From a virus, in IMG/VR virus record IMGVR_UViG_3300045988_045918, positions 1 to 16,393 of that record: a stretch of 16,393 bases of DNA. One strand, 5' to 3'. The notes beneath the pieces are model-generated. The model did no database searches and was not told where the DNA came from. It saw only the letters and a list, made by a program, of their open reading frames with translations. A program made the position numbers and the translations under genes. This document shows positions 121 to 16,393 of the stretch, in pieces. Position 1 is the stretch's first letter, and each line of letters starts with the position of its first letter.

Positions 121-149
121 TTGACTTACATCTAATTAAGATATATAAT
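121..149 (+). promoter_or_regulatory. Sigma-A type promoter (ITR P2), reading inward
   Basis: TTGACT (121-126), 17-bp spacer, TATAAT (144-149). The -35 is again within TACTTGAC (118-125). It lies about 40 nt upstream of the ATG at 192. Confidence 0.8.
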
Positions 150-191
150 AAATATAGAAACAACATAAACAATAACAAGGAGGAATAAACT

Positions 192-581
192 ATGACAAAG
201 GAACAGATTATCCAAGCACTCAGGAATGACTACGCTGATTGTATGCATCGTTCGGCACACCTTGAAGAATCAAGCAACGACGAATACCTCGAAGGAGTCC
301 TTGACGGACGTGCGCGTGGTGCGTTGCACGCTATTGAATTACTAAAGCAACTTGAACCAAATTCCAGAGAAATAAAGAAAACCGCAAATGTAGCCTTACG
401 TGATTTATATCTCATTAATAGTGATTGGACTTCTAACTCAATATTGCATATTAAATGCGGTTATTGTGCCCCAACTGAGGATATGACAGCGCACGAAGCA
501 ATTGTACGTTTTGGAACTAATATAGTACGTTTATTTACTGAAAATCACGTGTCTATTTTCCCTAGAGAACCAGAATCTTAA
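192..581 (+). CDS. Hypothetical early protein (129 aa). The first 92 codons are encoded inside the left ITR. Paralog of 15876..16202.
   Basis: Strong RBS AAGGAGG (177-183) 8 nt before the ATG. It lies downstream of two consensus promoters. The N-terminal 92 aa are identical to the right-end copy. I recognise no motif. Confidence 0.85.
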   Translation: MTKEQIIQALRNDYADCMHRSAHLEESSNDEYLEGVLDGRARGALHAIELLKQLEPNSREIKKTANVALRDLYLINSDWTSNSILHIKCGYCAPTEDMTAHEAIVRFGTNIVRLFTENHVSIFPREPES

Positions 582-611
582 GAATTTGTTCACACTCTGT
601 TCATATTTACT

Positions 612-620
612 TGATATAAT
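612..620 (+). promoter_or_regulatory. Possible extended -10 promoter upstream of the 75-aa ORF
   Basis: TGaTATAAT at 612-620, preceded by TACTTGA (608-614), which resembles the TACTTGAC box of the ITR promoters. There is no good -35 at 17-bp spacing. Confidence 0.4.
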
Positions 621-645
621 GAAATCATAAGGAGGTGAACATAAG

Positions 646-873
646 ATGCTAAAGACATTATTTGAGCAGATGATTGAACAATACGGAAATTGGAATTTTT
701 ACAAGATGCCCCGTTCTGATTCGCCTTTTTCCAAATACATGTTCACCCCTCAAGGCGATACATTCATGATGATAGTTGAACTTGACATGATGTATCATGA
801 GAAAGAATTACCAGTATTACTCACATTGATAAACAGAGATATTTACAAAATTTTGTCAATCAAATTTTACTAA
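646..873 (+). CDS. Hypothetical early protein (75 aa)
   Basis: Very strong RBS AAGGAGGTGA (630-639) before the ATG at 646. Co-oriented with the early operon. No recognisable motif. Confidence 0.75.
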   Translation: MLKTLFEQMIEQYGNWNFYKMPRSDSPFSKYMFTPQGDTFMMIVELDMMYHEKELPVLLTLINRDIYKILSIKFY

Positions 874-1008
874 CCAGTTGTCAACGCCTACACCTAACCA
901 ATAACAATTCACAGAAACCCCACTCACAGAGATGCGTATAAAATGTCAAGTAGGCGTTAACATAAATAAGCCATTAACTAAATCAAACAAGAAAAGGAGA
1001 CAAACACC

Positions 1009-1305
1009 ATGGCAAAAGAATCAATGGTAACAAGAACAATCATCAGCACCCAGGTAACTGTATTAGGCGTAGACGAGGTAGCTGGAGAAGCAACAAACGC
1101 AACCTACAACCTGCCCGGAGATTACACCGATAAGGCAAAGGCCCTTAAGGCAGTAATCAAAGCCAACACTGTAGAAACCTACCATCCCTCTGTCGTAGTA
1201 GACATGAAAAAGGAAGAGCGTGTTTTAGGTATTCCTGTATCCAAGTTCATGGAACTCGCAGTAGAGGTAGAACGTCCAAAGTCTCAGCAGAAGAAAGAAG
1301 CGTAA
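1009..1305 (+). CDS. Putative phi29 p6-like histone-like dsDNA-binding protein (98 aa)
   Basis: RBS AAGGAG. The size, the MAK.. N-terminus and the C-terminal segment RVLGIPVSKFMELAVEVERPK resemble phi29 p6 as I recall it (..VYELPVEKFLEVATVRVEK..). The position is syntenic: p6, p5, TP, DNAP. Confidence 0.55.
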   Translation: MAKESMVTRTIISTQVTVLGVDEVAGEATNATYNLPGDYTDKAKALKAVIKANTVETYHPSVVVDMKKEERVLGIPVSKFMELAVEVERPKSQQKKEA

Positions 1306-1339
1306 CCAACAACCACAACAACGAAAAGGAGATTAAACC

Positions 1340-1693
1340 ATGACAATTACAACTATGAGTAGTGAGAACTTCACCAAGGCAGAACTTTACAGGATGACAA
1401 AAAGCCCGTCAATCGTTTCAGTTAAGGCCATTCCTGACGGAACGATAATGACACCAATAGGGTGGTTGACATTTGACGATGAGAACAACAAAGGAGAAGT
1501 TTCCCACATGCTTTCCATCATCGGAGTAGGCGAGGACGACCAGGAGGTAGTATGGTCTTGTCAGTCACAGACGTTCAAGGACAATTTCATGGACTTGTGG
1601 GAATTGTTCAAGGGTGACACATTCAAGATTAAGAAGTTATCAGGCGAAACGAAAGCAGGACTTGAGTACGTTAACTGTGACCTTGCAGTATAG
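1340..1693 (+). CDS. Putative phi29 p5-like single-stranded DNA-binding protein (117 aa)
   Basis: RBS AAGGAG. AIPDGTIMTPIGW and DTFKIKKLSGETKAGLEYVNCDL resemble phi29 p5 as recalled (NLPDGTIIEANAI; ETFKVKVVQGTSSKGNVFFSLQL). The position between the p6-like gene and the TP/DNAP genes is syntenic. Confidence 0.6.
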   Translation: MTITTMSSENFTKAELYRMTKSPSIVSVKAIPDGTIMTPIGWLTFDDENNKGEVSHMLSIIGVGEDDQEVVWSCQSQTFKDNFMDLWELFKGDTFKIKKLSGETKAGLEYVNCDLAV

Positions 1694-1705
1694 AACGGAA
1701 TAACC

Positions 1706-1733
1706 GGGGAGGGAAACCTCCCCACTATTTTAT
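1706..1733 (+). terminator. Stem-loop, possible attenuator or partial terminator between the SSB and the TP/DNAP block
   Basis: GGGGAGG (1706-1712), GAAA tetraloop, CCTCCCC (1717-1723), then ACTATTTTAT. The U-tract is interrupted, so it is probably leaky. Confidence 0.45.
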
Positions 1734-1752
1734 CCAATCAGGAGGTGTTAAC

Positions 1753-1896
1753 ATGGATATGATATGTTGTGAAAACTGTAGGTATTTCAATCGTAACGTT
1801 AGGGAAGAGCCATGTTTATCCTGTTCATTCACTCAAGACAGGATAGAATATTGGGAACCAATCATAGAGGAGGTATACGATGGCGAAGAAACCTAA
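1753..1896 (+). CDS. Small Cys-rich (zinc-ribbon-like) protein, 47 aa, absent from the ORF track
   Basis: Hand translation gives MDMICCENCRYFNRNVREEPCLSCSFTQDRIEYWEPIIEEVYDGEET*. AGGAGGTG RBS (1740-1747) lies about 5 nt before the ATG at 1753. Two CxxC pairs (C6/C9 and C21/C24). The stop overlaps the start of the TP gene by 17 nt. Confidence 0.55.
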   Translation: MDMICCENCRYFNRNVREEPCLSCSFTQDRIEYWEPIIEEVYDGEET

Positions 1897-2581
1897 AACA
1901 ACCGATTTACGTAAAACGCAATTATCAGACGTACAGAAGCAATACCGCAAAGAACGCCGCCGTATCCAGCGTCAGATACGCCGTATGGAGAACCGAGCCT
2001 ATGACGTTCCCTCATTACTACCAGATATACCTAAGCGCATCACCAAAGCAAGTGTTAACAAGCTTAAGAAAATTACCACCGAATACCTGTACTCACGGTC
2101 ACGCTATATTGACACAGAAACAGGTGAAATCCTAACAGGCGAACAAGGGCGTAAGCAGGAACGCAAGGAAGCCGCGCAGAGAGCGGCGCAGACGCGTAAG
2201 GAACGCAAGCGTGAATCAGTAATACCCCCAAGGCAACCAGTAACCCCTCCAGCAGAAGTTGAGTACGTGGATTTCACGAATCAGATATTTACTGTATTCC
2301 AGATGGAAATGACTCAGATATACGGACGCAATGAAAGGTTGTTCAATTACCTTACACGCTGGTTCAACATGGCACGAGCACGTTATGGCGATGAGGACTT
2401 CGCGGAAGCCTTAGAGCAATCAAAGGCAGACGGTATGTGGCCTGGATGGGAAGGTGTATCCGATACAGAAATACTGGTCGGAAAGTTAACTGGAATCCTT
2501 GAATTAATAGGTGGTACAGCAGGTGGTCGTGAGGAAATCATCGAGAGCCTGGAAGCAGGTGAGGAATGGGAAGAAGTCTGA
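1880..2581 (+). CDS. Candidate terminal protein (TP) for protein-primed replication (233 aa)
   Basis: RBS GAGGAGG (1866-1872). It lies immediately upstream of, and overlaps, the protein-primed DNA polymerase, as phi29 gene 3 does with gene 2. The N-terminal half is very K/R-rich and the C-terminus is acidic. The size is close to phi29 TP (266 aa). The call rests on position and composition; I recognise no direct motif. Confidence 0.6.
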   Translation: MAKKPKTTDLRKTQLSDVQKQYRKERRRIQRQIRRMENRAYDVPSLLPDIPKRITKASVNKLKKITTEYLYSRSRYIDTETGEILTGEQGRKQERKEAAQRAAQTRKERKRESVIPPRQPVTPPAEVEYVDFTNQIFTVFQMEMTQIYGRNERLFNYLTRWFNMARARYGDEDFAEALEQSKADGMWPGWEGVSDTEILVGKLTGILELIGGTAGGREEIIESLEAGEEWEEV

Positions 2582-4485
2582 CAGAATTTATAGAACCACA
2601 ACTATTGGAGGATTATAAGAATGTGCGAACACGCAATTATGAGTACTATGTTTGTGACTTTGAAACAACGGTTTTTAAAGACCAAACCTATACAGAAGTA
2701 TGGGCCGCAGCATTTGTCAAACTCTGGTCAGAAGATGTAGAAATTTATCATTCTATCAACGAGTTTCTTGACGGAGTATTTGACTTAGGATGTAATGTAA
2801 TAGGATACTTCCATAACCTTAAGTTTGATGGTAATTTTATTATAGATTACCTTCTGAGAAACAACTACAAGTGGAACAGAACATCCGAACGTAACATGAA
2901 TAACAATGATTTTAAGTGCTCTATCAGCGATAGAGGTGCATGGTACACAATTACTATTAAGCATAAGAACAACATCATTGAGTTTAGGGATTCACTAAAG
3001 CTTTTACCTTTCAGTGTAGAACGCATTGGCAAGTCATTTAAGACGAAACACAAGAAGCTTAACATGGAATACGAGGGGTTCAGATTTGCAGGATGCGTGA
3101 TAACTCCAGAGGAAATAGAATATATAGCTAATGATGTATTAGTAGTTAAAGAAGCACTTGAAATCATGTTTGAGAGAGGGCATCAAAAACTAACAATTGG
3201 TTCCTGCTGTCTGGAGGAGTTTAAGCAGACGTATGACAAGCAGGATTATAAGAACTTTTTTCCTGATTTAACGGAGGTGGAAATAGATGAGCAGACATAT
3301 GGAGAACAAACAGCCGATGCATACATCCGTCATAGTTACCGTGGAGGATATTGCTACCTTGTTAAAGGAAAAGAGAATCGTATATACAACCGAGGATGGA
3401 CAGCAGATATCAATAGTTCTTACCCTTCAAACATGTCATCAGAATCAGGAAACTACTACCCGGTTGGAAAGCCACAGTTTTGGACAGGAGAAATTCCAGA
3501 AGTGGCTAAAGAAAACTATTATTTTGTCAGAATCAGATGTAGATTTCAGGTAAAACCGGGGATGTTACCAACGGTACAGATTAAAGGAAGCTTTCTGTAC
3601 GTAGGAACAGACTACCTAACTACAAGTGATTATTACGATTATAGCACAGGAACCTACAAACGTTATTACATGAAAAACGGAAAGTTTCACGATAGCTACG
3701 TAACCATGACAATGACAGGCGTTGATTACGAGTTGTTCCTTAAGCATTACAATGTATTTGACCTACAAATACTGGACGGATGCTGGTTCAGGCAGGAGAT
3801 TGGGTTATTTGATGAGTATATGTATAAGTATAAGAAGATTAAGGAGAACAGCAAGGATGCCGAAAGAGAGTTGGCAAAACTTTACCTTAATAACCTGTAT
3901 GGCAAGTTCTCATCCAACGACCTTTCAAGTTATAAGGTTCCGTATATTAATGACAAGAATGTTTTAGGTTTTGAAATAGTAGAAGAGCACGAGAAGAAGC
4001 CGGGGTTCATAGCGGTCGGAAGTGCAATCACATCATATGCAAGGAGGTTCGTAATCAATGCCGCGCAAGCTAATTATCAAGGGCCGGATAGGGACGGTTT
4101 CATATACTGCGATACAGATTCCATTCATTGTAGTGGCAATCCTAATGACGCAAAAGGAATTAAGATTCATCCTACAAATTTCTGTGCATGGAAACTCGAG
4201 AGTTATTGGGACAAAGCGATTTTTGTTAGGCAGAAAACGTATATTGAGCATGTCACTCACAACGATGGGGAACCAGTAGAACCATATTACTCAATCAGGT
4301 GCGCTGGTATGGGCGAGAAAGCAAAGCAGGAGTTCCTTAAAGAACATGATATACATGAGTTTAAAGAAGGGCTTAAGCTTAATAACATGTTAAAACCAGT
4401 AAGAATGCCTGGAGGAATTGTATTGGTAAATAAGGGTTATCATATGACTCCAAAGAGATTTAACAAGTTCCAGGAAGAAAAGTAA
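2566..4485 (+). CDS. Protein-primed family-B DNA polymerase (phi29 gp2-like)
   Basis: Motifs nearly identical to phi29 DNAP as recalled: ExoI YVCDFETT, ExoII YFHNLKFDGNFI, ExoIII YIANDVLVV, motif A DINSSYPS, motif B KLYLNNLYGKF, motif C YCDTDSIH, and KxY RQKTYIE. The ATG at 2566 follows AGGTGA. An in-frame GTG at 2623 after GGAGG (2606-2610) is an alternative start. Confidence 0.97.
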   Translation: MGRSLTEFIEPQLLEDYKNVRTRNYEYYVCDFETTVFKDQTYTEVWAAAFVKLWSEDVEIYHSINEFLDGVFDLGCNVIGYFHNLKFDGNFIIDYLLRNNYKWNRTSERNMNNNDFKCSISDRGAWYTITIKHKNNIIEFRDSLKLLPFSVERIGKSFKTKHKKLNMEYEGFRFAGCVITPEEIEYIANDVLVVKEALEIMFERGHQKLTIGSCCLEEFKQTYDKQDYKNFFPDLTEVEIDEQTYGEQTADAYIRHSYRGGYCYLVKGKENRIYNRGWTADINSSYPSNMSSESGNYYPVGKPQFWTGEIPEVAKENYYFVRIRCRFQVKPGMLPTVQIKGSFLYVGTDYLTTSDYYDYSTGTYKRYYMKNGKFHDSYVTMTMTGVDYELFLKHYNVFDLQILDGCWFRQEIGLFDEYMYKYKKIKENSKDAERELAKLYLNNLYGKFSSNDLSSYKVPYINDKNVLGFEIVEEHEKKPGFIAVGSAITSYARRFVINAAQANYQGPDRDGFIYCDTDSIHCSGNPNDAKGIKIHPTNFCAWKLESYWDKAIFVRQKTYIEHVTHNDGEPVEPYYSIRCAGMGEKAKQEFLKEHDIHEFKEGLKLNNMLKPVRMPGGIVLVNKGYHMTPKRFNKFQEEK

Positions 4486-4507
4486 CAATATTTGCGCAAG
4501 TATTGTT

Positions 4508-4540
4508 AAAGGGAGGATAAGATTATCCTCCCTTTTATAT
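4508..4540 (+). terminator. Intrinsic terminator of the early/replication operon, possibly bidirectional
   Basis: AAAGGGAGGATA-AGAT-TATCCTCCCTTT: a 9-12 bp GC-rich stem (4508-4519 / 4524-4535) followed by TTTTATAT. The A-tract upstream allows some function on the minus strand. It is preceded by a near-palindrome, CAATATTTGCGCAAGTATTG (4486-4505). Confidence 0.8.
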
Positions 4541-4646
4541 CTGAACAGATGGTCTATAAAGTGGGTTTCCAATACCCTATACCCCATCGGCATGTTTTAC
4601 CATGTGGATTCCGACAGCGGCAAATTATAGATAACACCTGTAGATA

Positions 4647-5678
4647 CTAATATGATAAAAGTTTTATAAGCATCTGTTTGCAGTCCAGGTTCTTGAATCT
4701 GAAACACCCCTGGTTGAACAGCATACGGAAATGATTGATTAACAGCGCATTCTTTGCTATCATAACATAGTTTATGTTGTGGTCGTCTGTAGTTAATGAA
4801 AGCTTATATGGGAAGCTACTGTCATAGTTATCAGTAACATACATGATACCCAATCCGTCATACTCATAGATGGCGTAGTGCTTCTTAAGGTACTTGACGG
4901 TGTAGCAATACCTTCCACGCCCCTCAGGCTTATCTATGAATGAGAAGTTATCGTTAAGGTATACATTCTGACTAGCGTACATAACATAATCGCTGGACGC
5001 AAATGCCCGGTTGAATCCCGAGTCAAGTTGTGCGTCACTAGCAGATTTAATGAAACCTTGCTCAAGAACAAACCCATCACCTCTCAGGAAATTAGTTTCC
5101 TTTTTAAGTCTGTCACTTATTCCAAGGCTTGCGTAGTAAGGATTAAGTAAGCTTACTGTATTTCCACACATGTACACAGGCACGTAACGAATCTGCTTAC
5201 CGTTACCACGGGCAATACTTGTATGCACGGATAACAGCTTACGGATTTCATCCGTGCAGTATTTGTTTGTCTCGCTCTGGAACTCATCCATCATCATGCG
5301 TTCTACATCATTGAAAAGGTGGCTATATTTCTTGATTGCGTCAGCGTTATTAAGCGCAATAGCATAACCGCATGGCTCATCATTTAGGAACATTTCGTGG
5401 AAGATACCTTTAGCCATAGGACGGCTTGTCATTTCATCATCAGGGAAGAACAAACCGTGAATATCCTTAAAGAATTTTTCTGCACAATCTGACAACTCAT
5501 AGTTGAATCTATAAATCAGGCAGAACTTACCTTTTCCCTGTTTAAACTTCTTAACAAGATAACGGCTAAACCATGTGGTCTTACCACCTGTTCGGTTGGT
5601 AGTAACCATAAACAGTTCTGGTTCACGACCGTTAAGGTCTTTCATGGACAGCAATTTGGTCCCGTCATAGTAAGCCAT
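4647..5678 (-). CDS. DNA encapsidation/packaging ATPase (phi29 gp16-like)
   Basis: 343 aa, versus 332 aa for phi29 gp16. Walker A TNRTGGKTT, Walker B MMMDEFQ. RBS AAAGGAG 6 nt before the ATG. It is the only clear internal gene on the minus strand (the right-ITR paralog at 15876..16202 is also on minus). Confidence 0.88.
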   Translation of the reverse strand: MAYYDGTKLLSMKDLNGREPELFMVTTNRTGGKTTWFSRYLVKKFKQGKGKFCLIYRFNYELSDCAEKFFKDIHGLFFPDDEMTSRPMAKGIFHEMFLNDEPCGYAIALNNADAIKKYSHLFNDVERMMMDEFQSETNKYCTDEIRKLLSVHTSIARGNGKQIRYVPVYMCGNTVSLLNPYYASLGISDRLKKETNFLRGDGFVLEQGFIKSASDAQLDSGFNRAFASSDYVMYASQNVYLNDNFSFIDKPEGRGRYCYTVKYLKKHYAIYEYDGLGIMYVTDNYDSSFPYKLSLTTDDHNINYVMIAKNALLINHFRMLFNQGCFRFKNLDCKQMLIKLLSY

Positions 5679-5712
5679 GCCTAACTCCTTTCAAACTATA
5701 GTTTCTCTAATT

Positions 5713-5741
5713 ATTGTAACACATTTTCATTGACAAGTCAA
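5713..5741 (-). promoter_or_regulatory. Sigma-A type promoter for the packaging ATPase gene (leftward)
   Basis: On the minus strand: TTGACT (5741..5736), 17-bp spacer, TACAAT (5718..5713), with a TGn extended -10. The -35 is within TACTTGAC, the same box as in the ITR promoters. Confidence 0.7.
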
Positions 5742-5758
5742 GTATAATTTGATATAAT
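5730..5758 (+). promoter_or_regulatory. Sigma-A type promoter for the lysis and morphogenesis (late) operon (rightward)
   Basis: TTGACA (5730-5735), 17-bp spacer, TATAAT (5753-5758), with an extended -10 TG at 5750-5751. Its -35 abuts the -35 of the leftward promoter (5730-5735 versus 5736-5741). Confidence 0.75.
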
Positions 5759-5781
5759 AAAAGGTAGGAAGGAGGTGTAAC

Positions 5782-5973
5782 ATGAATGATATTGCTAGTA
5801 TCATAAGTACGGTTGGGTTTCCAATTGCGCTTACCCTGATTCTGTTATGGTATATCTATGACAGCAACAATAAGCACAAGGAAGAAATCGACAAAATGTC
5901 AGAGGCATTGAACAACAATACCCTTGCGCTGACAAAATTGTTAGACAGGATGGAGAGTGATAAACATGTTTAA
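5782..5973 (+). CDS. Holin, BhlA/UviB-like (63 aa)
   Basis: One N-terminal transmembrane segment (ISTVGFPIALTLILLWYIY) followed by a charged coiled C-terminal part, which is the architecture of BhlA/UviB holins. It lies directly upstream of, and overlaps (ATGTTTAA), the muramidase gene. RBS AAGGAGGTG. Confidence 0.7.
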   Translation: MNDIASIISTVGFPIALTLILLWYIYDSNNKHKEEIDKMSEALNNNTLALTKLLDRMESDKHV

Positions 5974-6613
5974 GGGGATTGATGTTTCCAGACACCAAGG
6001 CGAGATTGACTGGGAGAAGGTAATCGATTCTGAGCACTCAGATTTCGCAATCATACGCGCTGGGTTTGGAAATAATAACATTGATGCACAGGCAGAACGC
6101 AATATCGAATGGTGCGAGAAGCTTGGCATACCATACGGGTTATACTGGTTCAGCTATGCGTTACACCCTGACATGGCGAAACGTGAAGCAGAACATCTGA
6201 TTAACTTTGTTGGCTCAAGAAGGCCATCATATCCACTGGTCTATGACTTTGAGTATGACAGCGTTACGCACTGCACTAAGAACGGAGTTAAGGTAACAAG
6301 GGATTTTGTACTTAAATGCACAGAAGCATTTTGTGAACGTCTGGAAGAAGCAGGATTCTACGCTATGTTCTACTGCAACAATGATTATTTACAGAGGTAT
6401 TACCAGGGTTCACGATGTGCAGAAAAATATGACATGTGGTTCGCGCGATACGCCGCTAATCCAGGTAGACCAGTAACATTATGGCAGACTTCTGAATCCG
6501 GTAAGATACCGGGAATATCAGGTAGGTGCGACCTTGACCAGACAGAAAGGGATTACCCTTCTATAATTATCCGTAACAATCTTAACAATTGGAAGGATGT
6601 TTTACATGGCTAA
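5966..6613 (+). CDS. Endolysin, GH25 muramidase (lysozyme), catalytic domain only
   Basis: GIDVSRHQGEIDWEKV, FAIIRAG, a DFE acid pair (YDFEYD) and YWF are typical GH25 (Cpl-1-type) signatures. ATG at 5966 with GGAGAG 8 nt upstream. The ORF-track start at 5957 is an upstream GTG. No obvious cell-wall-binding domain. Confidence 0.88.
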   Translation: MFKGIDVSRHQGEIDWEKVIDSEHSDFAIIRAGFGNNNIDAQAERNIEWCEKLGIPYGLYWFSYALHPDMAKREAEHLINFVGSRRPSYPLVYDFEYDSVTHCTKNGVKVTRDFVLKCTEAFCERLEEAGFYAMFYCNNDYLQRYYQGSRCAEKYDMWFARYAANPGRPVTLWQTSESGKIPGISGRCDLDQTERDYPSIIIRNNLNNWKDVLHG

Positions 6614-7604
6614 TATCCAGGTTGCCTATAATTGGGCCATAGAAGTATGCAATGAACCGAATGTCGGATACTCTCAGCAGTATCGTAACCAGCGCACTGT
6701 TAACGGTATAACATACTATGATTGTTCATCATTCATATGGTATGCTCTACTAGCAGGAGGGTGGGACTTAGAAACTAAATACGGAACATGGCCCTTTACC
6801 ACATCAACCATGGCTAACATCCTTTTACAGGAAGGATTCACACGTTATGACCCATCTGTCCCATGGCTGAAAGGGGATATACTTCTCAGGTCTACCCACA
6901 CGGAAATGGCATTCGATGCGACAAGAACCATGGGCGCACATACCAGCACAGTTCCGTTAGACCAACAGGTGTCAATCAACGTAAATGATTCCCGTGGTAA
7001 CTGGTTGCACCTATACCGTTATGGACAGGGCGCAATCAGCGAGTGGATTAAAGGCAACCGTTATCTCGCAATAGGTGAGATGCAGAACAACGCTACCATC
7101 CAGTTTGCATACTTTATGGATAAGGGATGGACAGCAAACGCCGTGGCTGGAATGCTAGGCAACCAACAAGTGGAATCAACCCTAAACCCAGGCGTGTGGC
7201 AGAACCTTACACCGGGTACCGGGGGGTTTGGTTTAGTACAATGGACACCTTCAACCAACTACACCGATTGGGCTGACCAGCATGGTTACGCCCATGACGA
7301 TGGTAACGGTCAGATGGAGTGGATAGACACTGAGACCGTGCCATTCGGCCAATGGATACCTACATCACAATACCCGGAGACATTCGGTGAGTTCAAGGTA
7401 AGCACACAAACACCTGAATATCTTGCAGATTGTTTCCTGAAGAATTTTGAGCGTCCGTCTGAAATCGACCAACCGATAAGACAGGAATACGCAAGGTATT
7501 GGTATGACTGGTTTGAAGGTCATTATGTTCCACCGCCTAATCCACCGGGTGCGCCGGACTGGAGACATAGAATGCCATTGTACATGTATCTTAAAAAATT
7601 ATGA
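6606..7604 (+). CDS. Two-domain peptidoglycan hydrolase: N-terminal NlpC/P60- or CHAP-like Cys peptidase plus C-terminal phage tail-lysozyme-like domain. Probable virion-associated lysin (functional analogue of phi29 gp13).
   Basis: N-terminal YYDCSSFIWYAL (catalytic Cys context) with a downstream His (STHTEMAF). C-terminal AGMLGNQQVESTLNP...GGFGLVQWTP resembles the GNxxxES / G(L)xQWT pattern of phage tail lysozyme domains. ATG at 6606 follows GGAAGGA. The ATG at 6597 is an alternative start. The start overlaps the lysozyme stop (ATGGCTAA). Confidence 0.7.
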   Translation: MANIQVAYNWAIEVCNEPNVGYSQQYRNQRTVNGITYYDCSSFIWYALLAGGWDLETKYGTWPFTTSTMANILLQEGFTRYDPSVPWLKGDILLRSTHTEMAFDATRTMGAHTSTVPLDQQVSINVNDSRGNWLHLYRYGQGAISEWIKGNRYLAIGEMQNNATIQFAYFMDKGWTANAVAGMLGNQQVESTLNPGVWQNLTPGTGGFGLVQWTPSTNYTDWADQHGYAHDDGNGQMEWIDTETVPFGQWIPTSQYPETFGEFKVSTQTPEYLADCFLKNFERPSEIDQPIRQEYARYWYDWFEGHYVPPPNPPGAPDWRHRMPLYMYLKKL

Positions 7605-7621
7605 TGTTTCACGTGAAACAT
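7604..7621. repeat. Perfect 18-bp palindrome ATGTTTCAC|GTGAAACAT
   Basis: The two 9-nt halves are exactly complementary, centred on CACGTG. It overlaps the last base of the hydrolase stop codon and ends 2 nt before the scaffold-gene RBS (AAAGGAGG). Confidence 0.9.
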
Positions 7622-7636
7622 TGAAAGGAGGAAAGT

Positions 7637-7951
7637 ATGGCTGTATTAGACAGGGATAACTTTTTTAAACGCATCAGGGAACGACTTGGAGAGGATGATT
7701 CCGAGGAAGCCTTATCCTATCTCGAGGATATGACCGACACATGGGAGGACATGGAACGTAGGGCTAGCCGCGAGGGGGAGGAGAATTGGGAGGAGAAATA
7801 CAACAACCTCGATGCTGAGTGGCGCAAGCGTTATAGGGATAGGTTCTTTAACACTCCGGAAGGTGTAAAGGAGGACCAGGAAGAGGATGTTAAGGACGAT
7901 GGTAAAGTACGTAGCTTTGAAACATTATTTGAAGAAAGGGAGGGCGAGTAA
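7637..7951 (+). CDS. Putative scaffolding protein (phi29 gp7-like by size, charge and position)
   Basis: 104 aa, very acidic (E/D-rich) and apparently helical. It lies immediately upstream of the major capsid gene, as phi29 gp7 (98 aa) does. RBS AAAGGAGG. Confidence 0.6.
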   Translation: MAVLDRDNFFKRIRERLGEDDSEEALSYLEDMTDTWEDMERRASREGEENWEEKYNNLDAEWRKRYRDRFFNTPEGVKEDQEEDVKDDGKVRSFETLFEEREGE

Positions 7952-8467
7952 ATGCCTATTAAACCAGAGAAAGTCACAATGAACACCGTGACCGCAAATG
8001 CGGCACAGCAGTACAGGGCAGAAGCGACTAACGCAAACCTCGAGGGAGTAAGCAACATGAGGTTAGCAACAGCGCAGATTCTTAACACAATCAGGGACAA
8101 TGCATCTGCTAACTATAGGGATTACATCCCAGAAGCAGACCCCATCAGTCAGGCAAGCGTAAGGCAGATTGGTGGTATAATCATGAACTACCCGGCCTTA
8201 CAGAATGAGTTCCTTAACGCACTCATGAACCGTATCGGTCGTGTGCTGATAACTTCCAAGATGTTTTACAACCCATGGTCTGGTCTTAAGAAAGGCCTGC
8301 TTGAGTTTGGCGAGACAGTGGAAGAGATTTTTGTGAACATAGCAAAGCCTTTCCAGTTCGACCCGGCTGTAGCTGAGACTGATGTATTTAAGCGTGAAAT
8401 CCCGGACGTGCGTGCGGCTTTCCACATCCTTAACTATCAGAAGTTTTATAAAGCCAATCAGCAATGA
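7952..8467 (+). CDS. Major capsid protein (phi29 gp8-like), N-terminal frame segment
   Basis: ILNTIRDNASANYRDYIPEA, NEFLNALMNRIGRVLI, GETVEEIF, VFKREIPDVRAAFHILNYQKFY align with phi29 gp8 as recalled ([66 protein letters not shown]). The frame ends at TGA 8465-8467, where homologs continue. Confidence 0.9.
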   Translation: MPIKPEKVTMNTVTANAAQQYRAEATNANLEGVSNMRLATAQILNTIRDNASANYRDYIPEADPISQASVRQIGGIIMNYPALQNEFLNALMNRIGRVLITSKMFYNPWSGLKKGLLEFGETVEEIFVNIAKPFQFDPAVAETDVFKREIPDVRAAFHILNYQKFYKANQQ

Positions 8468-9404
8468 CCAGCTTAGACAGGCGTTCCTGTCATGGCAGGG
8501 AATCACAGACCTGATTGCAAAGATTGTTGACAGCATGTATACAGGTGCAAACTACGATGAGTTCCTGACCATGAAATACATGTTGGCCCGCAACATATTA
8601 CAGGGCCGTATGAACGTGACTGAGATTGCGCCCGTGACCGCAGAAAACGCAAAAACCATCGTTTCAACCATTAAGGGGATAAGCAACGTGTGGGAGTTCC
8701 CATCCACCAACTACAACCTGTCAGGCGTTACTACCCAGACAGAGAAGCGTGACCAGATTCTGCTGATTAACGCTAAGTTCGATGCACTGATGGACGTGGA
8801 AGTCCTTGCCGCCGCATTCAACATGGAAAAGGCAGAGTTCATGGGCAACCGGGTTCTAGTTGACAGCTTCGGTTCCCTTGATACAGCAAGGCTGGAAATC
8901 TTGTTTAAGGATGACCCTAACTTTGTTCCGATTAGTCAGGCAGAGTTACAGGCCCTTGACGCGATTCCTGTAGTTATGGTCGATAGGGATTGGTTCATGA
9001 TTTTTGACAACTTCTACAACTTTACCGAGAACTACAATGGACAGGGGTTGTACTGGAACTACTTCTACCACACCTGGAAAACGTTCAGCGTTTCACCGTT
9101 CGCAAACAACACCATTTATGTGGGAGGCGCACCGACCGTGACAAGCGTAACCGTTTCTCCAGCAACGGCCACAGTAGTTAAGGGGCAGAACATTAAGCTG
9201 ACAGCCGCAGTTGTTACAACCAACTTCGCGCCTAAGTCCGTTGTATGGTCATTAACAGGGGCTACTTCTGCTGACACACATATTGATATCTACGGAAATC
9301 TGTATGTTGCGGAAGATGAAACAGGAACAACGCTTACAATTACTGCAACATCTACTTTTGACAGCACTAAGGTTGGAACGGCAACCATCACAGTCTCTGC
9401 TTAA
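8382..9404 (+). CDS. Major capsid protein (phi29 gp8-like), C-terminal frame segment including a BIG2 Ig-like domain. Homology starts at about 8454.
   Basis: In the +1 frame relative to 7952..8467. [60 protein letters not shown] match phi29 gp8 ([54 protein letters not shown]). The C-terminal [20 protein letters not shown]...ITVSA is a BIG2-type domain. Residues encoded from 8382 to about 8453 are just the open frame, not homologous sequence. Confidence 0.9.
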   Translation: [340 protein letters not shown]

Positions 9405-9411
9405 CATCATT

Positions 9412-9431
9412 GCCCCTGGTTTTCCAGGGGC
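9412..9431 (+). promoter_or_regulatory. GC-rich stem-loop just after the capsid gene (RNA-stabilising or partial attenuator)
   Basis: GCCCCTGG-TTTT-CCAGGGGC: an 8-bp stem with a 4-nt loop and no U-tract. It lies 8 nt after the capsid stop and directly before the RBS of the next gene. Confidence 0.5.
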
Positions 9432-9445
9432 TTGGAGGTATCATC

Positions 9446-10960
9446 ATGTATGTAGCACCTAATAGTAATGTCAGGATACTTAGAAACGTACCACTTGACA
9501 ATACTTATAGGAACACGATATATTTTTCTACAGTGGCTAATCAGGCCGCTTACTTCACAACGCTGACTAAATTTAACAATCCAGCATTGTCATACGTAAA
9601 CCTTAATGAACCGATAATGATTGGAATTAATGCAGAACAATTGTATGATTGTAACTACATGATGTTTCAGAATGCATCCTTTGGCACAAAATGGTTCTAT
9701 GCTTTCATAACCTCAGTTAAGTACATCAATAATGAAACGTCTGAGATTACAATGGAAATTGATGTGATGCAGACATGGTTCTTTGACTATACTGTTAATC
9801 CATCATTCGTTGTTAGGGAACATTCGCTTACAGACGGAATTGGCGAAAATCTTGTGCCTGAGGACTTAGAGTTAGGAGAATACATCTACGATACGGCGTT
9901 CAGGACTGATTACATGAACGACTATGTTGTTGTAGTTGCCGCAACGGTTGACAGCACAGGACAGCCGGGAACAAGTACTGGAGGGTACGGAAACATATAT
10001 TCTGGATGCTGGTTACATGTATTTGACACGTTTCCAGCCGTTGCAGTGTTCCTTGATAAACTGGTAGCTGATAACAAAGGGGATGCGGTAGTATCAATAT
10101 TCATGATGCCGTCAAGCTTCACCACAATCATGGGTGCACCAGCTAAACACTACACGATTGAAAGGGATAAACAACGTGGAACCATAGACGGTTACACACC
10201 CAAGAACAACAAGTTATTCACGTATCCATATTGCTTCCTTTACGTGACTAATCTTATGGGTAATAGCGCAACCTATAAGTATGAATATTTTAACTCAGCC
10301 AATTGTGTGTTTGACTTTGCAATGGATATGTCACCTAACCCAACCGGGATGCTGACACCATTAGGTTACAAAAACGTGGGGGCTAACTACAACGAGTCAA
10401 TGACAATTAGCGGTTTCCCTCAGTGCTCATTCACCACTGACACATACCGTGCGTGGCTTGCGCAGAACGGTTCCAGCATGACCATTGACATGTTGGGAAG
10501 TGCAATGGCGGCTTCTGTAGGTGCAATTGCTGGAGGCCCTATCGGCGCAATAGGCGCAGTAGGGGGATTCACTAATGTGGCTAAAACACTTGCGCGTGTT
10601 AATGCAATATCAGCACAACCACCACAGTCACATGGTTCACAATCAAACACAGCACAGGTAGCATTTTCAATTAAGGACTTTTGGTTCCTAAACTATCACG
10701 TTAGGGCTGAGTTCGCTAAAATCATAGATGATTACTTCAATACCTACGGTTACGCGACTCATAGAGTTAAGGTTCCAAACCGTAGCCAAAGACCGCACTG
10801 GAATTACGTAAAGACTCAAAACTCCAATCTTACAGGTAGCGTTCCGGCAGAGGACATGGCTAAACTTAGGGGTATATATGACAACGGGATTACGTTCTGG
10901 AAGAACGGCTCAGAAGTAGGCAACTATGGATTGGATAACAGAGTGGGAGGAGGTGCATAA
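9446..10960 (+). CDS. Tail knob / distal tube protein (phi29 gp9-like), 504 aa
   Basis: MYVAPNSNVRILRNVPLDNTYRNTIYF, YMMFQNASFGTKWFYAFIT, IDVMQTWFFD, FVVREH, and C-terminal YGY..HRVKVPN....HWNYVKT, IYDNGITFW match phi29 gp9 as recalled ([92 protein letters not shown]). GGAGGT RBS before the ATG at 9446. The track start at 9410 is an upstream TTG that runs through the hairpin. Confidence 0.88.
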   Translation: MYVAPNSNVRILRNVPLDNTYRNTIYFSTVANQAAYFTTLTKFNNPALSYVNLNEPIMIGINAEQLYDCNYMMFQNASFGTKWFYAFITSVKYINNETSEITMEIDVMQTWFFDYTVNPSFVVREHSLTDGIGENLVPEDLELGEYIYDTAFRTDYMNDYVVVVAATVDSTGQPGTSTGGYGNIYSGCWLHVFDTFPAVAVFLDKLVADNKGDAVVSIFMMPSSFTTIMGAPAKHYTIERDKQRGTIDGYTPKNNKLFTYPYCFLYVTNLMGNSATYKYEYFNSANCVFDFAMDMSPNPTGMLTPLGYKNVGANYNESMTISGFPQCSFTTDTYRAWLAQNGSSMTIDMLGSAMAASVGAIAGGPIGAIGAVGGFTNVAKTLARVNAISAQPPQSHGSQSNTAQVAFSIKDFWFLNYHVRAEFAKIIDDYFNTYGYATHRVKVPNRSQRPHWNYVKTQNSNLTGSVPAEDMAKLRGIYDNGITFWKNGSEVGNYGLDNRVGGGA

Positions 10961-11868
10961 TGTCAAGAGGACGGAATAACGTAAACGGCCCAAAAGGAGA
11001 TAGGGAGTTCTGGAATGCAAAGAAGTGTAATGACTGGACGTTCATACAGTACTACAACCGATTGGTCGACCTATGCATATCTCAGTTTGAGTGGATAAAC
11101 TTACCAACAACCTGTGACAGACGATTCCTTGAACTTACACTTATGGCAGATGGCATGGCGGTGTTCTTTAGGGACGAAATCATGGGTTATCTATCATTGC
11201 AATGTATGATATCAGGGCCGTTGGATGTATACAGGATACCTATTTTGCGCAGGGCGTATGCAAGCAACGGGTATCAAATGCCGCTGGATAATCTTAACAG
11301 CGTGCTTATCTTTAACAACTCACTGCACACTAACAGTCAGTTAGATATAGAGATGTACGCTTGGAGATTGTACGAAGTACAAAGGGCAATTGACACCAAC
11401 ATCAAACTACAGAAAACGCCAAAGATTGTTAAGTGTTCTGAAAACCAGAGGTTGACAATCATTAACTTGTTTAAACAGTATGAGGGTAACTACCCGTTCA
11501 TATTCGCCGACAAGGCAATGGACTTGAAGGGCCTGGAATCAATTGACATAGCGGCACCTTATGTGGCTGATAAATTGATGGTTATCAAACAGCAGATTTG
11601 GGACGAAGCTATGACATATCTCGGAATAGCTAACACTAACACTTCAAAACGTGAAAGACTTAATACTTCTGAGATATCTGTAGGAATGGGTGATGTGGAA
11701 GCACAGAGGTATACAAGATTGATGGAAAGGGAGATAGCCGTTGAAAGAATTAACTCTATGTTTGGTCTTGACTTAGATGTTAAATACAAACAGGTAATAC
11801 CAACCCTGCCTGATAATCTTGAAGATGGCGAGGGAGAGGAAACTGATGAAAAGGAGGATGACGAATGA
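10960..11868 (+). CDS. Portal / upper collar connector protein (phi29 gp10-like)
   Basis: 302 aa, versus 309 aa for phi29 gp10. QFEWINLP, QKTPKIV, NQRLTIINLFKQYEGNYPFIFA, APYVADKL, WDEAMTYLGI.N.N.SKRERL match phi29 gp10 ([65 protein letters not shown]). TAATG stop/start overlap. RBS GGAGGAGGTG. Confidence 0.92.
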   Translation: MSRGRNNVNGPKGDREFWNAKKCNDWTFIQYYNRLVDLCISQFEWINLPTTCDRRFLELTLMADGMAVFFRDEIMGYLSLQCMISGPLDVYRIPILRRAYASNGYQMPLDNLNSVLIFNNSLHTNSQLDIEMYAWRLYEVQRAIDTNIKLQKTPKIVKCSENQRLTIINLFKQYEGNYPFIFADKAMDLKGLESIDIAAPYVADKLMVIKQQIWDEAMTYLGIANTNTSKRERLNTSEISVGMGDVEAQRYTRLMEREIAVERINSMFGLDLDVKYKQVIPTLPDNLEDGEGEETDEKEDDE

Positions 11869-12698
11869 GCGTATACACAACACAAGTAAGATTCATCTGT
11901 GAAGCAGAAGCCGGACTTAAGAAAAGCGTTGGTTATGATGATGTTGAAACAGTCATTCAGAACGCCATCCCTAAGATATTCAGTTTCGATTGGCCCATAT
12001 TTGATGAGAATTATAGAAACGTACTTGAGACAAAAATACTTAAGCATTACTACACTAGGGAGATTGGGTTAGAGACATACGGACTTTGGAAACTCAAACT
12101 TGACACTAAGCTTAATGAGATTATGCCATACTACAATCAGCTATACAAAAGTGCTTTACTTGACTTCAATCCGTTCTACGATGTTGACCTGACTAGGAAT
12201 CACACTGGTAAAAAGACAGGTACCGAAGCTTTGAAAGGTAATGTAGATGTTAATGGTCAGGTAATTGTTGACAACCATGGTAATGTCAATACGACCGACA
12301 ATACCACCGTAAACAATACCACAACGTCAGATAACTTGGATAAATATTCTGCAACACCGCAGGGTGGATTAGATAACTTAAGAAATGACAAGTATCTGAC
12401 TAATGCAAGAATGATTACAGATGCAAATAACAGCAACGGAACAACAAACGGAAAAACAGATACTAGCACGGACAGTACAACGGATACAACCACGAATACA
12501 ACAACCATCACGAACAATAACACAACCATAAACAATACTGAGGATTACTTGGAAACTGTTAAGGGAAAACAAGGCACTCAAAGTTACGCCGGATTACTAC
12601 TGGAATTTAGGGAAACTTTCCTTAATATCGACATGATGGTGATTGATGACCTGAGTGAATTGTTTATGAATATATGGACAGGAGGATATCCATTTTGA
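11865..12698 (+). CDS. Lower collar protein (phi29 gp11-like) with an internal Asn/Thr-rich low-complexity insert
   Basis: 277 aa, versus 293 aa for phi29 gp11. It sits in the gp11 position between the portal and the appendage/tailspike. The N-terminal VRFICE...PIFDENYRNVLETKILKHYYTREIG...IMPYYNQLY pattern is typical of picovirus lower collar proteins as I recall them. ATGA start/stop overlap. RBS AAGGAGGA. Confidence 0.7.
   Translation: MSVYTTQVRFICEAEAGLKKSVGYDDVETVIQNAIPKIFSFDWPIFDENYRNVLETKILKHYYTREIGLETYGLWKLKLDTKLNEIMPYYNQLYKSALLDFNPFYDVDLTRNHTGKKTGTEALKGNVDVNGQVIVDNHGNVNTTDNTTVNNTTTSDNLDKYSATPQGGLDNLRNDKYLTNARMITDANNSNGTTNGKTDTSTDSTTDTTTNTTTITNNNTTINNTEDYLETVKGKQGTQSYAGLLLEFRETFLNIDMMVIDDLSELFMNIWTGGYPF
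12290..12545 (+). repeat. Low-complexity A/C-rich coding tract (Asn/Thr/Asp-rich) inside the lower collar gene
   Basis: Translated as TTDNTTVNNTTTSDN...NNSNGTTNGKTDTSTDSTTDTTTNTTTITNNNTTINNTED. The nucleotide level shows iterated ACAAC/ACGAC/AATAC units with no fixed period. Confidence 0.8.
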
Positions 12699-15600
12699 CG
12701 ACTACGACTACAAATTTTAAAAGCATTCAGTTGCTCAGACAGTGGTGTATGCTAACACTGCCAACGGTGTTTAATGACGCACTTAGTTACAACGAGCAGG
12801 TGTGCAAGCTGACCAAAGCCATTAACGATATGGCAAATACAATCAACGGCTTACCAGACTACATTATTGAGTTGGTAAAAGAGTTACTTAATCAGTTAAG
12901 TCTGGAGGAGATTGTTAAGGAAGTACTTGCAGACCTTTACTTCCTCAACGTAAAAAATCCTCCAAACAACATGGTAGCGGCTATGGGTGATGGGGTTACA
13001 GATGATACTGCCGCCATTCAGGCTATGATTGCCTATCTGAGTGGTAAAAGAGCGTATTTGTTCTTCCCTGCTGGTATTTACTCTGTTACTGGACTTAACG
13101 TGACGACTAACATGAGTTTGGTTGGTTTTGATAGATACCAGACCACGTTGCAGTTAAGGGCTGGTAGCAACAAAAACTTGCTCACTGGTGATTTAGGGGC
13201 TTGCACTATCAATGACATTACGTTGGATGCTAACATGCCTGGTCAGACACAAAATTGTAGTGTGTTTGATGGCAATGTTGGTAATATGCTAGTTAGCAAT
13301 GTTATCTTTAAAAACGGGTACAATGTATTTGGTGTTGATGTTAACGGATTAGTTCAGATGGACAATGTTATATTTGATAGTGTTCAGGGCAACGGGTTGA
13401 GTATTGGTGGAGACAGAGTTGTAGCAAATAATATAGAATTTGTAAATAACTCTCTAAATGCTAGTACACTGATTACTATCTCTGGAACAAACTGTATGTT
13501 GACTAACTTGCTCAATACATCAAACTGTAGCAAGGTATTAAACATTACTGGTAACAATAACGTAATTATGGGCGTTGCAAAAGGTACACAAACACCTTAT
13601 ACAGTTGGCGGCACTGATAACTTTGTAGACCTTATAACAACAGAAGGCCATGTGGTTATAGATGGTAATTATACGCATAACACAAATGGTGACGTTAGCA
13701 CAACATGCAACTCATCTACACAAAACATTAACACAAATAACACTGTACATGTTGATGGTAATGACTTATTGACAGCTAACAACTCAACTGAAACTATAAA
13801 CACAACCAAAGAAATAACCGCAAACGATATCTATTTAAATCCTACCAACCCGTTAAAATATGGAAGTGTAAAAGACTATAATAATTACTTTAAAGTCGTT
13901 GACATGAAAGACAAAAACGAAAACCCATATAACTTGCTCGTACCAGGCGCTGATATAGCGCAAATAGGAAATATAAATTCCTTGACAATTTCAGCAAGAA
14001 GGCTGGGTAGATGGCTAATACCGTTTGGAAATAATACAGCAGATAGGGGTGCAACGTTAGCTTTTTCTTATTCGCAAGGCAGTTATTTTATCGAAAGTAC
14101 CAATAGAATGTTGGTGGGTTTTATTCCATTTAACACAGATGATATAAGAAAAAATAACGACTGTATGATAAGAGAATATAGCATGGCTGACGGTGGCTTA
14201 ATTAGAGAAAAAGTCATTCCTTCAGGTGGTCATGTTAATGGTATGGGAATGGATGAAACTAATCAGATTGTATATGTCGCTCAAACACTAACTTATGATT
14301 CAGCAGGAGAAACCGTGGGTAGCAAGGTCATATTAGCTTTAGACTATGACACGCTTAATGTAATAAGAGTAATAACCGTTGATACTACATTAGCTACTTT
14401 CCTAAATTCTGTAAGTTATGATAATGATACTAACAAACTATATGCAATGTCCCCGAGTTATATATTTGAAATAAATAGTACTACTGGGGCTATTATTTCA
14501 ACTATTCCTTTAAGTAAACCAGACGGTCTAGATTCAGCAGAGTTGGGATATCAGGACGGCGCAATTAGAGGTGGGTTCATATATCAGCCAATTAGTGGCC
14601 CAGAAGGCTTAATCGTTTATGATATGACGGGCGCGTTAGTAAAAGTGTTTAACTTTCCTAACTATACGGACAATTTATATGCTTGGAGTGAAACAGAAGG
14701 AATAACCGTATTAAATAACGGTGACTTAATGATTAACTGCTGTACTCAGATTGACAATGCAAGCGAATATTGTTGTACTCAGGTATTCTATTGTAGTGAT
14801 ACTGTTGCAGTACTTGAGAAAAACTTGTATAGAGGTAGCCCTAATAAATTTAGCGTAACTTACCTTGATTTTGCATCCACTGCATTTAACCCAACTGGGT
14901 TAGAAAGTGCTCCATTTAAGATACCTGGTGAGTTGTTAATGAGTTTAAAGGCTAACACTTATGCGCCTCAGATTAGCGAAATTCGTGTTACCGCTGGAGA
15001 ATACCCAGCTATCAGATTGGATGGAATGAGCAATTTACATTTTGTCTGCAATGGTGCTTCGTTTAGTTCAATCATATGCACTAAGTGTTCTAATATTTAT
15101 TTTGCTAGTGCTGTAATTAAAAAGACTAATTTCTATGTAACGAACGCATTATATGTCAGTAGAGTAACAGGTCTAACGTTAGATAACTTATTGTGTACCA
15201 CGGCTGAATGGACTTATCCTGATACTTACGTTTTCTATATAGAAAAAAGTAGCTTCACATGGTTAGGTGGGGTTGGTTCAAGTGATTACATTAATCCTAA
15301 TACTTATGATACGGGTAAATTATTCTATCTAATTGACTATAGTTTAACCAATAACTCATCATTTCAAAATGTGTCTACTAGTTATCAGAAATTAATAAAT
15401 ACTGGATATACACTAGCTACTGGTTCGGCGGCACCTGGTTCTACGCTTAATTTTAACAGCGCTATTACTAATGGGTGGGTTACAGACCCAATAACTAAGT
15501 TCAGATATATTAATTTTGAAATTAGAACGGATGCAGGGGCACATTCACAGTGCCATAAATTTAGGATTAGTAACGGAAACAGTTATGTGGTTAGAATGTT

Positions 15601-15799
15601 AAATTTACCTGATTCTATTCCGGCAACTGGATTTATAGGGGCGCTGTATGAAATGTTCTTTACTGTAACAAGTACAGGGATAGAATTTACTAAATCAAAC
15701 AGAATTAATTTAACTACGACTGAGAATGGCAGTGTAAAAGCCGCTGTTGCTACTGATAGCGATAGTAGGTTAACGGCTGTAACACTGTGTGATATGTAA
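12695..15799 (+). CDS. Tailspike / pre-neck appendage-like receptor-binding protein (phi29 gp12 position) with a pectate-lyase-type beta-helix
   Basis: N-terminal LPTVFNDALSYNEQVCKL anchor-type motif. GDGVTDDTAAIQAMI...FPAGIYSV, followed by repeated N/G/V-rich rungs, is the hallmark of Pectate_lyase_3-type right-handed beta-helices. A central repeat-like region (VYVAQ.., LYAMSP.., IYQPISG..) suggests a beta-propeller. The TTG at 12695 has a GGAGGA RBS 8 nt upstream and a TTGA overlap with the gp11-like stop. The ATG at 12674 (track start) has no RBS. Confidence 0.8.
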   Translation: MTTTTTNFKSIQLLRQWCMLTLPTVFNDALSYNEQVCKLTKAINDMANTINGLPDYIIELVKELLNQLSLEEIVKEVLADLYFLNVKNPPNNMVAAMGDGVTDDTAAIQAMIAYLSGKRAYLFFPAGIYSVTGLNVTTNMSLVGFDRYQTTLQLRAGSNKNLLTGDLGACTINDITLDANMPGQTQNCSVFDGNVGNMLVSNVIFKNGYNVFGVDVNGLVQMDNVIFDSVQGNGLSIGGDRVVANNIEFVNNSLNASTLITISGTNCMLTNLLNTSNCSKVLNITGNNNVIMGVAKGTQTPYTVGGTDNFVDLITTEGHVVIDGNYTHNTNGDVSTTCNSSTQNINTNNTVHVDGNDLLTANNSTETINTTKEITANDIYLNPTNPLKYGSVKDYNNYFKVVDMKDKNENPYNLLVPGADIAQIGNINSLTISARRLGRWLIPFGNNTADRGATLAFSYSQGSYFIESTNRMLVGFIPFNTDDIRKNNDCMIREYSMADGGLIREKVIPSGGHVNGMGMDETNQIVYVAQTLTYDSAGETVGSKVILALDYDTLNVIRVITVDTTLATFLNSVSYDNDTNKLYAMSPSYIFEINSTTGAIISTIPLSKPDGLDSAELGYQDGAIRGGFIYQPISGPEGLIVYDMTGALVKVFNFPNYTDNLYAWSETEGITVLNNGDLMINCCTQIDNASEYCCTQVFYCSDTVAVLEKNLYRGSPNKFSVTYLDFASTAFNPTGLESAPFKIPGELLMSLKANTYAPQISEIRVTAGEYPAIRLDGMSNLHFVCNGASFSSIICTKCSNIYFASAVIKKTNFYVTNALYVSRVTGLTLDNLLCTTAEWTYPDTYVFYIEKSSFTWLGGVGSSDYINPNTYDTGKLFYLIDYSLTNNSSFQNVSTSYQKLINTGYTLATGSAAPGSTLNFNSAITNGWVTDPITKFRYINFEIRTDAGAHSQCHKFRISNGNSYVVRMLNLPDSIPATGFIGALYEMFFTVTSTGIEFTKSNRINLTTTENGSVKAAVATDSDSRLTAVTLCDM

Positions 15800-15813
15800 G
15801 GGAGGTTAATGTT

Positions 15814-15845
15814 AAGGGATAGGTTGTGATGGCCTATCCCTTTTT
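15814..15845 (+). terminator. Intrinsic terminator of the late operon
   Basis: AAGGGATAGG (15814-15823), 9-nt loop, CCTATCCCTT, running into TTTTT (15841-15845). It lies 15 nt after the tailspike stop. Confidence 0.85.
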
Positions 15846-15875
15846 AGTTGCGTTATAAAATCGCGATAACATTAT

Positions 15876-16202
15876 CTAACGTTCAAATTTTTGTACATTG
15901 CTTAAGGTTAAGGTGCCGGTTGGGGTACAATAACCGCATTTAATATGCAATATTGAGTTAGAAGTCCAATCACTATTAATGAGATATAAATCACGTAAGG
16001 CTACATTTGCGGTTTTCTTTATTTCTCTGGAATTTGGTTCAAGTTGCTTTAGTAATTCAATAGCGTGCAACGCACCACGCGCACGTCCGTCAAGGACTCC
16101 TTCGAGGTATTCGTCGTTGCTTGATTCTTCAAGGTGTGCCGAACGATGCATACAATCAGCGTAGTCATTCCTGAGTGCTTGGATAATCTGTTCCTTTGTC
16201 AT
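15876..16202 (-). CDS. Hypothetical early protein (108 aa), right-end ITR-encoded paralog of 192..581 with a short divergent C-terminus
   Basis: Same RBS, promoters and first 92 codons as the left copy, because these are ITR sequence. After the ITR boundary it reads TPTGTLTLSNVQKFER* instead of the 37-aa tail of the left copy. Confidence 0.7.
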   Translation of the reverse strand: MTKEQIIQALRNDYADCMHRSAHLEESSNDEYLEGVLDGRARGALHAIELLKQLEPNSREIKKTANVALRDLYLINSDWTSNSILHIKCGYCTPTGTLTLSNVQKFER

Positions 16203-16244
16203 AGTTTATTCCTCCTTGTTATTGTTTATGTTGTTTCTATATTT

Positions 16245-16273
16245 ATTATATATCTTAATTAGATGTAAGTCAA
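16245..16273 (-). promoter_or_regulatory. Right-end copy of ITR promoter P2 (reading inward)
   Basis: Mirror of 121..149. AGTCAA at 16268-16273 and ATTATA at 16245-16250 on the + strand give TTGACT-17-TATAAT on the minus strand. Confidence 0.8.
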
Positions 16274-16331
16274 GTACTTAAATGTGAACATTTTGTTAAC
16301 ATTAAATAAGGTGTTTTAGGGTATCAATTCT

Positions 16332-16360
16332 ATTATAACATATGGGCCACTTTTTGTCAA
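16332..16360 (-). promoter_or_regulatory. Right-end copy of ITR promoter P1 (reading inward)
   Basis: Mirror of 34..62. TGTCAA at 16355-16360 and ATTATA at 16332-16337 on the + strand give TTGACA-17-TATAAT on the minus strand. Confidence 0.8.
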
Positions 16361-16393
16361 GTATTATTTCTTAAGGTTTCGAGGGAGTTAAGG

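Follow-up and report, generated by a model that had tools for sequence, protein, structure and literature searches.

The gene for the phi29-type major capsid protein (MCP) in the window, by which we mean the whole analysed stretch of 16,393 nt, is divided between two reading frames by the loss of two nucleotides. About 100 related loci, some of them with 99.2-99.8% identity to the window across as much as 10.7 kb, carry an uninterrupted MCP gene across the same site. The comparison of these sequences indicates that the split is in all probability an assembly or sequencing artefact at a low-coverage joint, and that the gene would be intact in nature. Artefact or variant alike, the split gene is neither an established genotype of this phage nor a regulatory device.

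Frame A of the MCP gene starts at 7952, keeps its native register to the last native codon, GCC at 8453-8455, and reaches a TGA at 8465-8467. Its translation product (7952 to 8467) has 171 aa and the C-terminal end ...FHILNYQKFYKANQQ before the stop. The gene resumes in the +1 frame with ATC at 8457-8459 as the first native codon and runs to 9404; in translation, the +1 frame has no interruption between 8373 and its terminal stop at 9402-9404, and it overlaps frame A by 95 nt. The Pfam profile PF25622 (Phi29_MCP, score cut-off 27 bits) matched the first fragment over profile positions 1-121 (E 7e-36, 124.7 bits) and the second over positions 124-321 of 323 (E 3.4e-57, 194.7 bits). Because these matches abut, the two ORFs are adjoining halves of one capsid domain, and together the two fragments match the Phi29_MCP profile over its full length. 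The stretch 8457 to 9404 encodes the remainder of the capsid-fold domain and a C-terminal Ig-like domain; the Ig_3 and Big_2 Pfam matches in this second half were weak and under their cut-offs. The translation and the two profile halves bear out the original prediction that a +1 frame change splits the MCP gene within a conserved segment. The features of the site are given below, with L numbers as our handles for other contigs and loci.

7952 to 8455, plus strand: MCP codons 1-168 (Met1 to Ala168) in native frame A, from the translation; matches Phi29_MCP 1-121, and residues 1-168 are 100% identical in L001 and L039.
8456 to 8457, plus strand: deletion point, where relatives have CA (GCC ACA ATC in relatives, GCC A/ATC in the window), from the DNA alignment; L106 ends at 8456.
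8457 to 8464, plus strand: ATCAGCAA, in place of the 10-nt CAATCAGCAA of relatives and of the gap of ten Ns in L091/L105.
8465 to 8467, plus strand: premature TGA in frame A, arising from the frame change, from the translation.
8457 to 9404, plus strand: MCP codons Ile170 to Ala484 and the stop, in the +1 frame; matches Phi29_MCP 124-321 and aligns to phi29 gp8 (PDB 6QVK).

Since both ORFs are open and an ATG at 8382 is available in the +1 frame, the capsid could conceivably be made as two co-assembling polypeptides of 171 aa and about 315-340 aa. However, the ATG at 8382 has no GGAGG-type site, whereas the ATGs at 7952 and 9437 are preceded by AGGGAGG and GGAGG, respectively, and a start at 8382 would add 25 out-of-frame residues. 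Moreover, the break interrupts a conserved block within the capsid-fold domain, at a position where no relative has a split gene. We therefore give this arrangement practically no credence.

DNA alignment with close relatives defined the lesion. Where the relatives read AAA GCC ACA ATC AGC (K-A-T-I-S), the window reads AAAGCCA--ATCAGC, which can also be written as AAAGCC--CAATCAGC; one CA of a CACA repeat is gone, and owing to this repeat the placement of the deletion is ambiguous inside CCA/A. A 1-nt insertion in the window was ruled out by the same alignment, as the real change is a 2-nt deletion costing Thr169. With CA restored, the native MCP has 484 aa. The original prediction had proposed that removing one base would restore an ORF of about 480 aa: the single ORF stood, but the one-base removal did not, because two bases are missing. 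The junction peptides that it had put forward, FYKAISNDQ and FYKPISNDQ, are likewise non-native, as intact relatives read K-A-T-I-S. Thr169 is invariant among the roughly 100 fetched loci, within the motif K-x-T-[IV]-x-N-D, and aligns gap-free with the Thr of phi29 gp8 (HQTIQDD).

The restored 484-aa MCP is homologous to the solved structure of phi29 gp8 (PDB 6QVK chain 1A; E 6.5e-74, phmmer), including the C-terminal Ig-like domain, and the alignment is gap-free across the junction. The phmmer segments pair query residues 41-310 with gp8 18-288 and query residues 339-469 with gp8 290-419; gp8 belongs to PF25622, and its PDB entries include 6QVK, 6QYD and 6QZ0.

The window is a complete linear genome of a phi29-like gut podophage. 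The MCP gene is flanked by a 104-aa gene upstream and by the genes for the tail knob gp9 (PF16838, PF20934) and the connector gp10 (PF05352) downstream, which is its position in a phi29-like morphogenesis module. The window also encodes a DNA_pol_B_2 polymerase, a GH25 lysin, a tail lysozyme, a 1041-aa tail protein and, on the minus strand, a gp16-type packaging ATPase. The ATPase gene (4647-5678) is the only large minus-strand gene; the DNA polymerase gene lies on one side of it and the lysis and structural genes on the other, as in all close relatives. The inverted terminal repeats comprise 475 nt (1-475 and 15919-16393) with one mismatch at repeat position 468; three contigs of the same or a near-identical phage (L106, L108 and L110) extend 29-85 bases beyond window position 1, and the true ends and repeats are therefore probably longer than in the window. 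Downstream of the connector gene, the 277-aa (11865-12698) and 1041-aa (12674-15799) proteins had no Pfam match; their positions would make the first the lower collar and the second the tail appendage or receptor-binding protein. An identical 1041-aa protein occurred in only three public contigs, a rarity that fits a fast-evolving host-range module.

Several related contigs differ from the window elsewhere in the genome. A 23.3-kb ENA contig (L103; ERZ773505 NODE_1059, coverage 13.3) and the IMG/VR contig 3300045988_180480 (L084) contain a 99.8% identical copy of window 117-10839 followed, from the same base in both, by unrelated DNA with genes for an integrase-like protein and a bacterial Mfd/TRCF helicase. 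The junction, at 10784/10785 in L103 and 9795/9796 in L084, corresponds to window 10839 inside the tail-knob gene (9410 to 10960). Because the junction sequence is identical in both, the two contigs probably share a source, and the junction may reflect either an assembly chimera or a real join of phage and chromosome. In another locus, L003, a single 160-aa ORF (2518-3000) corresponds to window 7447-7948, where the window has two genes, the tail-lysozyme gene with its end and the 104-aa gene before the MCP, which suggests a different gene boundary or another indel in L003.

The coincidence of the lesion with breaks in other assemblies of the same genome argues most directly for an artefact. 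Contigs 100% identical to the window were recovered by looking up its 1041-aa tail protein and DNA polymerase. One of them, L106 (SPAdes NODE_3875, coverage 4.28), reproduces window 1-8456 exactly as its bases 30 to 8485 and ends in ...TATAAAGCCA, its last bases being ...AAAGCCA. Another, L101 (MEGAHIT k127, run ERR1018200 of PRJEB10878), starts with TGACCAGC and is exactly window 8465-16053. The eight bases ATCAGCAA are the only bases of window 1-16053 absent from these two contigs together; the window therefore equals the left contig, ATCAGCAA and the right contig in succession. Between the same left and right flanks, relatives carry the 10-nt CAATCAGCAA, and the two missing bases are located at the extreme end of the left contig.

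Over 14,073 nt, a scaffold of sample SAMEA3541484 (L091/L105) differs from the window only in that 8457-8464 are replaced by ten Ns, so that it shows NNNNNNNNNN at these positions. Masking by a tool was rejected as the origin of the N-run: a sister scaffold of the same ENA series, L093, has 62 N where there are 53 real bases, and such N-runs are therefore estimated scaffold gaps. Two further contigs, L100 (MEGAHIT k119) and L102 (SPAdes, coverage 4.38), agree with the window from 8502 onward and are preceded by 71 and 98 nt, respectively, without a match in the window or its relatives. This junction, 40 nt from the deletion site, is probably chimeric and derived from a chimeric read. Read in frame, the foreign DNA (L100 1-71, L102 1-98) gives ...EEVKKFQPSLEVDDAEEAIYNNDVPD. 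Judging by their 100% identity and shared breakpoints, the identical contigs presumably come from the same sample; run ERR1018200 and sample SAMEA3541484 would then correspond to each other within the PRJEB10878 cohort. The SPAdes headers put the coverage of the two halves at 4.28 and 4.38, which are values for whole contigs rather than per-base depths. Four assemblies besides that of the window, apparently of this same low-coverage genome, failed to cross the site, and the assembly of the window crossed it two bases short. That independently assembled contigs end or leave a gap at the lesion points to an artefact.

The relatives, which were collected from several sources, are uniform at the site. 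In a tblastn-guided scan of IMG/VR, we collected 80 related loci with 63-100% aa identity, and in every one of the 80 the N- and C-terminal halves lie in one frame across the site, with one extra codon between Ala168 and Ile170; this count includes L011, whose own single-base MCP deletion sits about 270 nt upstream. Over 5.9 kb, L001 shows 99.8% identity to the window with these two bases as the sole gap, and its downstream MCP half shares 99.7% aa identity with that of the window, from which it follows that the downstream half has not decayed. Ten ENA/NCBI/Logan contigs encoding an identical upstream 104-aa protein each have one MCP gene coding for 484 aa (475 aa in L098 because of a later called start) and are 96.8-99.9% identical to the window over 7.2-8.3 kb, again with the 2-nt gap as the only one in each. 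In L103, which is 99.84% identical to the window over 10.7 kb, the MCP gene is intact as well. A degenerate exact pattern for the deleted allele had no match in IMG/VR or in JGI metagenomes, and the pattern for the intact allele had nine matches in IMG/VR. No record of the exact 171-aa or 340-aa product was present among 153 billion called genes. The original prediction had stated that two more bases at this position would mark the split as an artefact, and every relative, including those 99.2-99.8% identical, indeed has CA and an intact 484-aa ORF. Its ranking of a sequencing or assembly indel as the likeliest cause is supported by these intact relatives and by the contig ends and N-gap at the exact position.

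On the available alignments, one CA of GCC-ACA-ATC would have been lost during assembly from reads of about fourfold coverage, just where the two contigs yielded by other assemblers meet. The error most likely arose by one of two routes: the gap could have been bridged by a single erroneous read, or the left end ...GCCA could have been merged with the right CAATCAGC... and the shared CA collapsed as an overlap to give GCCAATCAGC. The outcome of such a collapse, GCCAATCAGC, is exactly the sequence of the window.

Two points weigh against an assembly error: two-base deletions are uncommon among Illumina errors, and the left contig end ...GCCA would also be expected where intact and deleted reads conflict in a de Bruijn graph at low coverage. 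As de Bruijn assemblers break on conflicting reads, a real minority variant could have caused the contig break. The 2-bp deletion might thus be real, belonging to a defective genome or minority variant generated by polymerase slippage on CACA, packaged in capsids from sibling genomes and caught by chance in a low-coverage assembly. The loss of one unit of a CA-CA tandem is a classic slippage context, the left contig ends at the last base common to both alleles, as conflicting reads would predict, and sporadic 1-nt deletions occur in structural genes of relatives. However, the deletion was not found in any other assembly searched, the right contig starts at 8465 and not at CAATC, where a simple two-allele bubble would close, and the downstream half is free of decay. 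Because the capsid protein is essential, a variant of this kind could not be the dominant genotype. We regard a real deletion, the main rival of the artefact reading, as unlikely, albeit deserving of consideration. That it persists in the phage population as a capsid-defective genome, by co-infection complementation or by low-level rescue through +1 slippage at A_AAG or a shift at CAA-UGA-C, seems very improbable to us.

Programmed +1 frameshifting or bypassing could in principle join the two MCP frames, as the +1 frame is open from 8373 to 9404. Near the site, frame A reads AAG TTT TAT AAA GCC AAT CAG CAA TGA, which offers two candidates: slippage of tRNA-Lys from AAA to AAG at 8450-8453, where A_AAG would let the tRNA re-pair, or a shift at CAA-UGA-C (8462-8468). 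As in prfB-type shifting, termination is weak in the context UGA-C, which to this extent favours the second candidate. Nevertheless, tRNA-Gln cannot re-pair from CAA to AAU, so A_AAG is the only re-pairing option, a weak one, and the codon that follows, GCC, is ordinary. The original prediction had noted no obvious slippery or Shine-Dalgarno (SD) stimulator signal, in agreement with our finding that no SD-like stimulator precedes the site and that the RNA fold of 121 nt around and downstream of it is no better than that of shuffled sequences (z = -0.60). The site thus does not combine a shift-prone P-site codon with a slow A-site codon and a stimulator. Nor is the frame change conserved, since none of about 100 relatives, including the 99.2-99.8% identical genomes, needs a shift here. 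The shifted product would lack the invariant Thr169, and the phi29 capsid protein is required in hundreds of copies per virion, a demand that also speaks against recoding. A full-text literature search for programmed frameshifting in phi29-type capsid genes gave only work on phage SPP1. Taken together, we consider programmed recoding at the MCP site effectively excluded, with hardly any probability left to it.

An assembly error at a low-coverage joint, the reading that we prefer, also agrees with the condition of the remaining genome. With ORFs of relatives as probes, no frame-broken gene other than that of the MCP was detected in the window. The window is accordingly not an indel-ridden product of long reads; its assembly is clean apart from a single faulty joint. 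Among the relatives, 3 of about 570 gene copies were frame-split, no two of them at the same site. The MCP gene of L011 lacks one nucleotide at about 3236 (GAACTAC to GAA-TAC), the tail-lysozyme gene of L010 lacks one at about 2190 (CATGGCT to CAT-GCT), and the tail-knob gene of L046 is split at about 6105-6110. Sporadic assembly errors or defective variants would be expected to give about this frequency, one break in every few dozen genomes.

For curation, the record should present the MCP as a single protein of 484 aa and flag a suspected 2-nt assembly error at 8456/8457; annotation as a pair of genes, as a pseudogene or as a recoding site should be avoided. More generally, reads are not needed to triage frame breaks in phage genomes assembled from metagenomes: one can search for breaks at the same base in other assemblies of the same genome.

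Compared with phi29, the restored MCP has in common with gp8 the signature FY-x-x-T-I-x-x-D and the C-terminal Ig-like domain, and the window shares the gene order of a small upstream gene, MCP, tail knob gp9 and connector gp10. However, the MCP of the window is only about 36-37% identical to those of the phi29 group, its genome is 16.4 kb long with inverted terminal repeats of about 475 nt or more, its packaging ATPase is on the opposite strand, and its MCP gene has the 2-nt deletion in this record. The closest cultured relatives are podophages of gut Clostridia, namely Clostridium phage CS229P1/P2/P3 (OP172772-4) and Hungatella phage CH17P1, whose MCPs are 60-66% identical at the aa level over more than 90% of the protein. 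They have 16-kb genomes, the local gene order of the window and a single annotated MCP gene, which is intact in contrast to that of the window; a megablast search of 7600-9500 against GenBank phages gave no match, and these relatives are visible at the protein level only.

A frame change inside a capsid gene is also a feature of two programmed shifts, the -1 shift of T7 gene 10A/10B and the +1 shift of Listeria phage PSA cps. Those shifts occur at the 3' end of the gene, are conserved, use defined slippery sites and stimulators and yield two functional isoforms, whereas the break in the window falls mid-domain, is signal-free and occurs in one assembly only. The window conforms instead to the sporadic indels of metagenome-assembled viral genomes, in having a single frame break, located at a low-coverage joint, in a genome that is otherwise intact; its break additionally matches the contig ends of other assemblies to the base.
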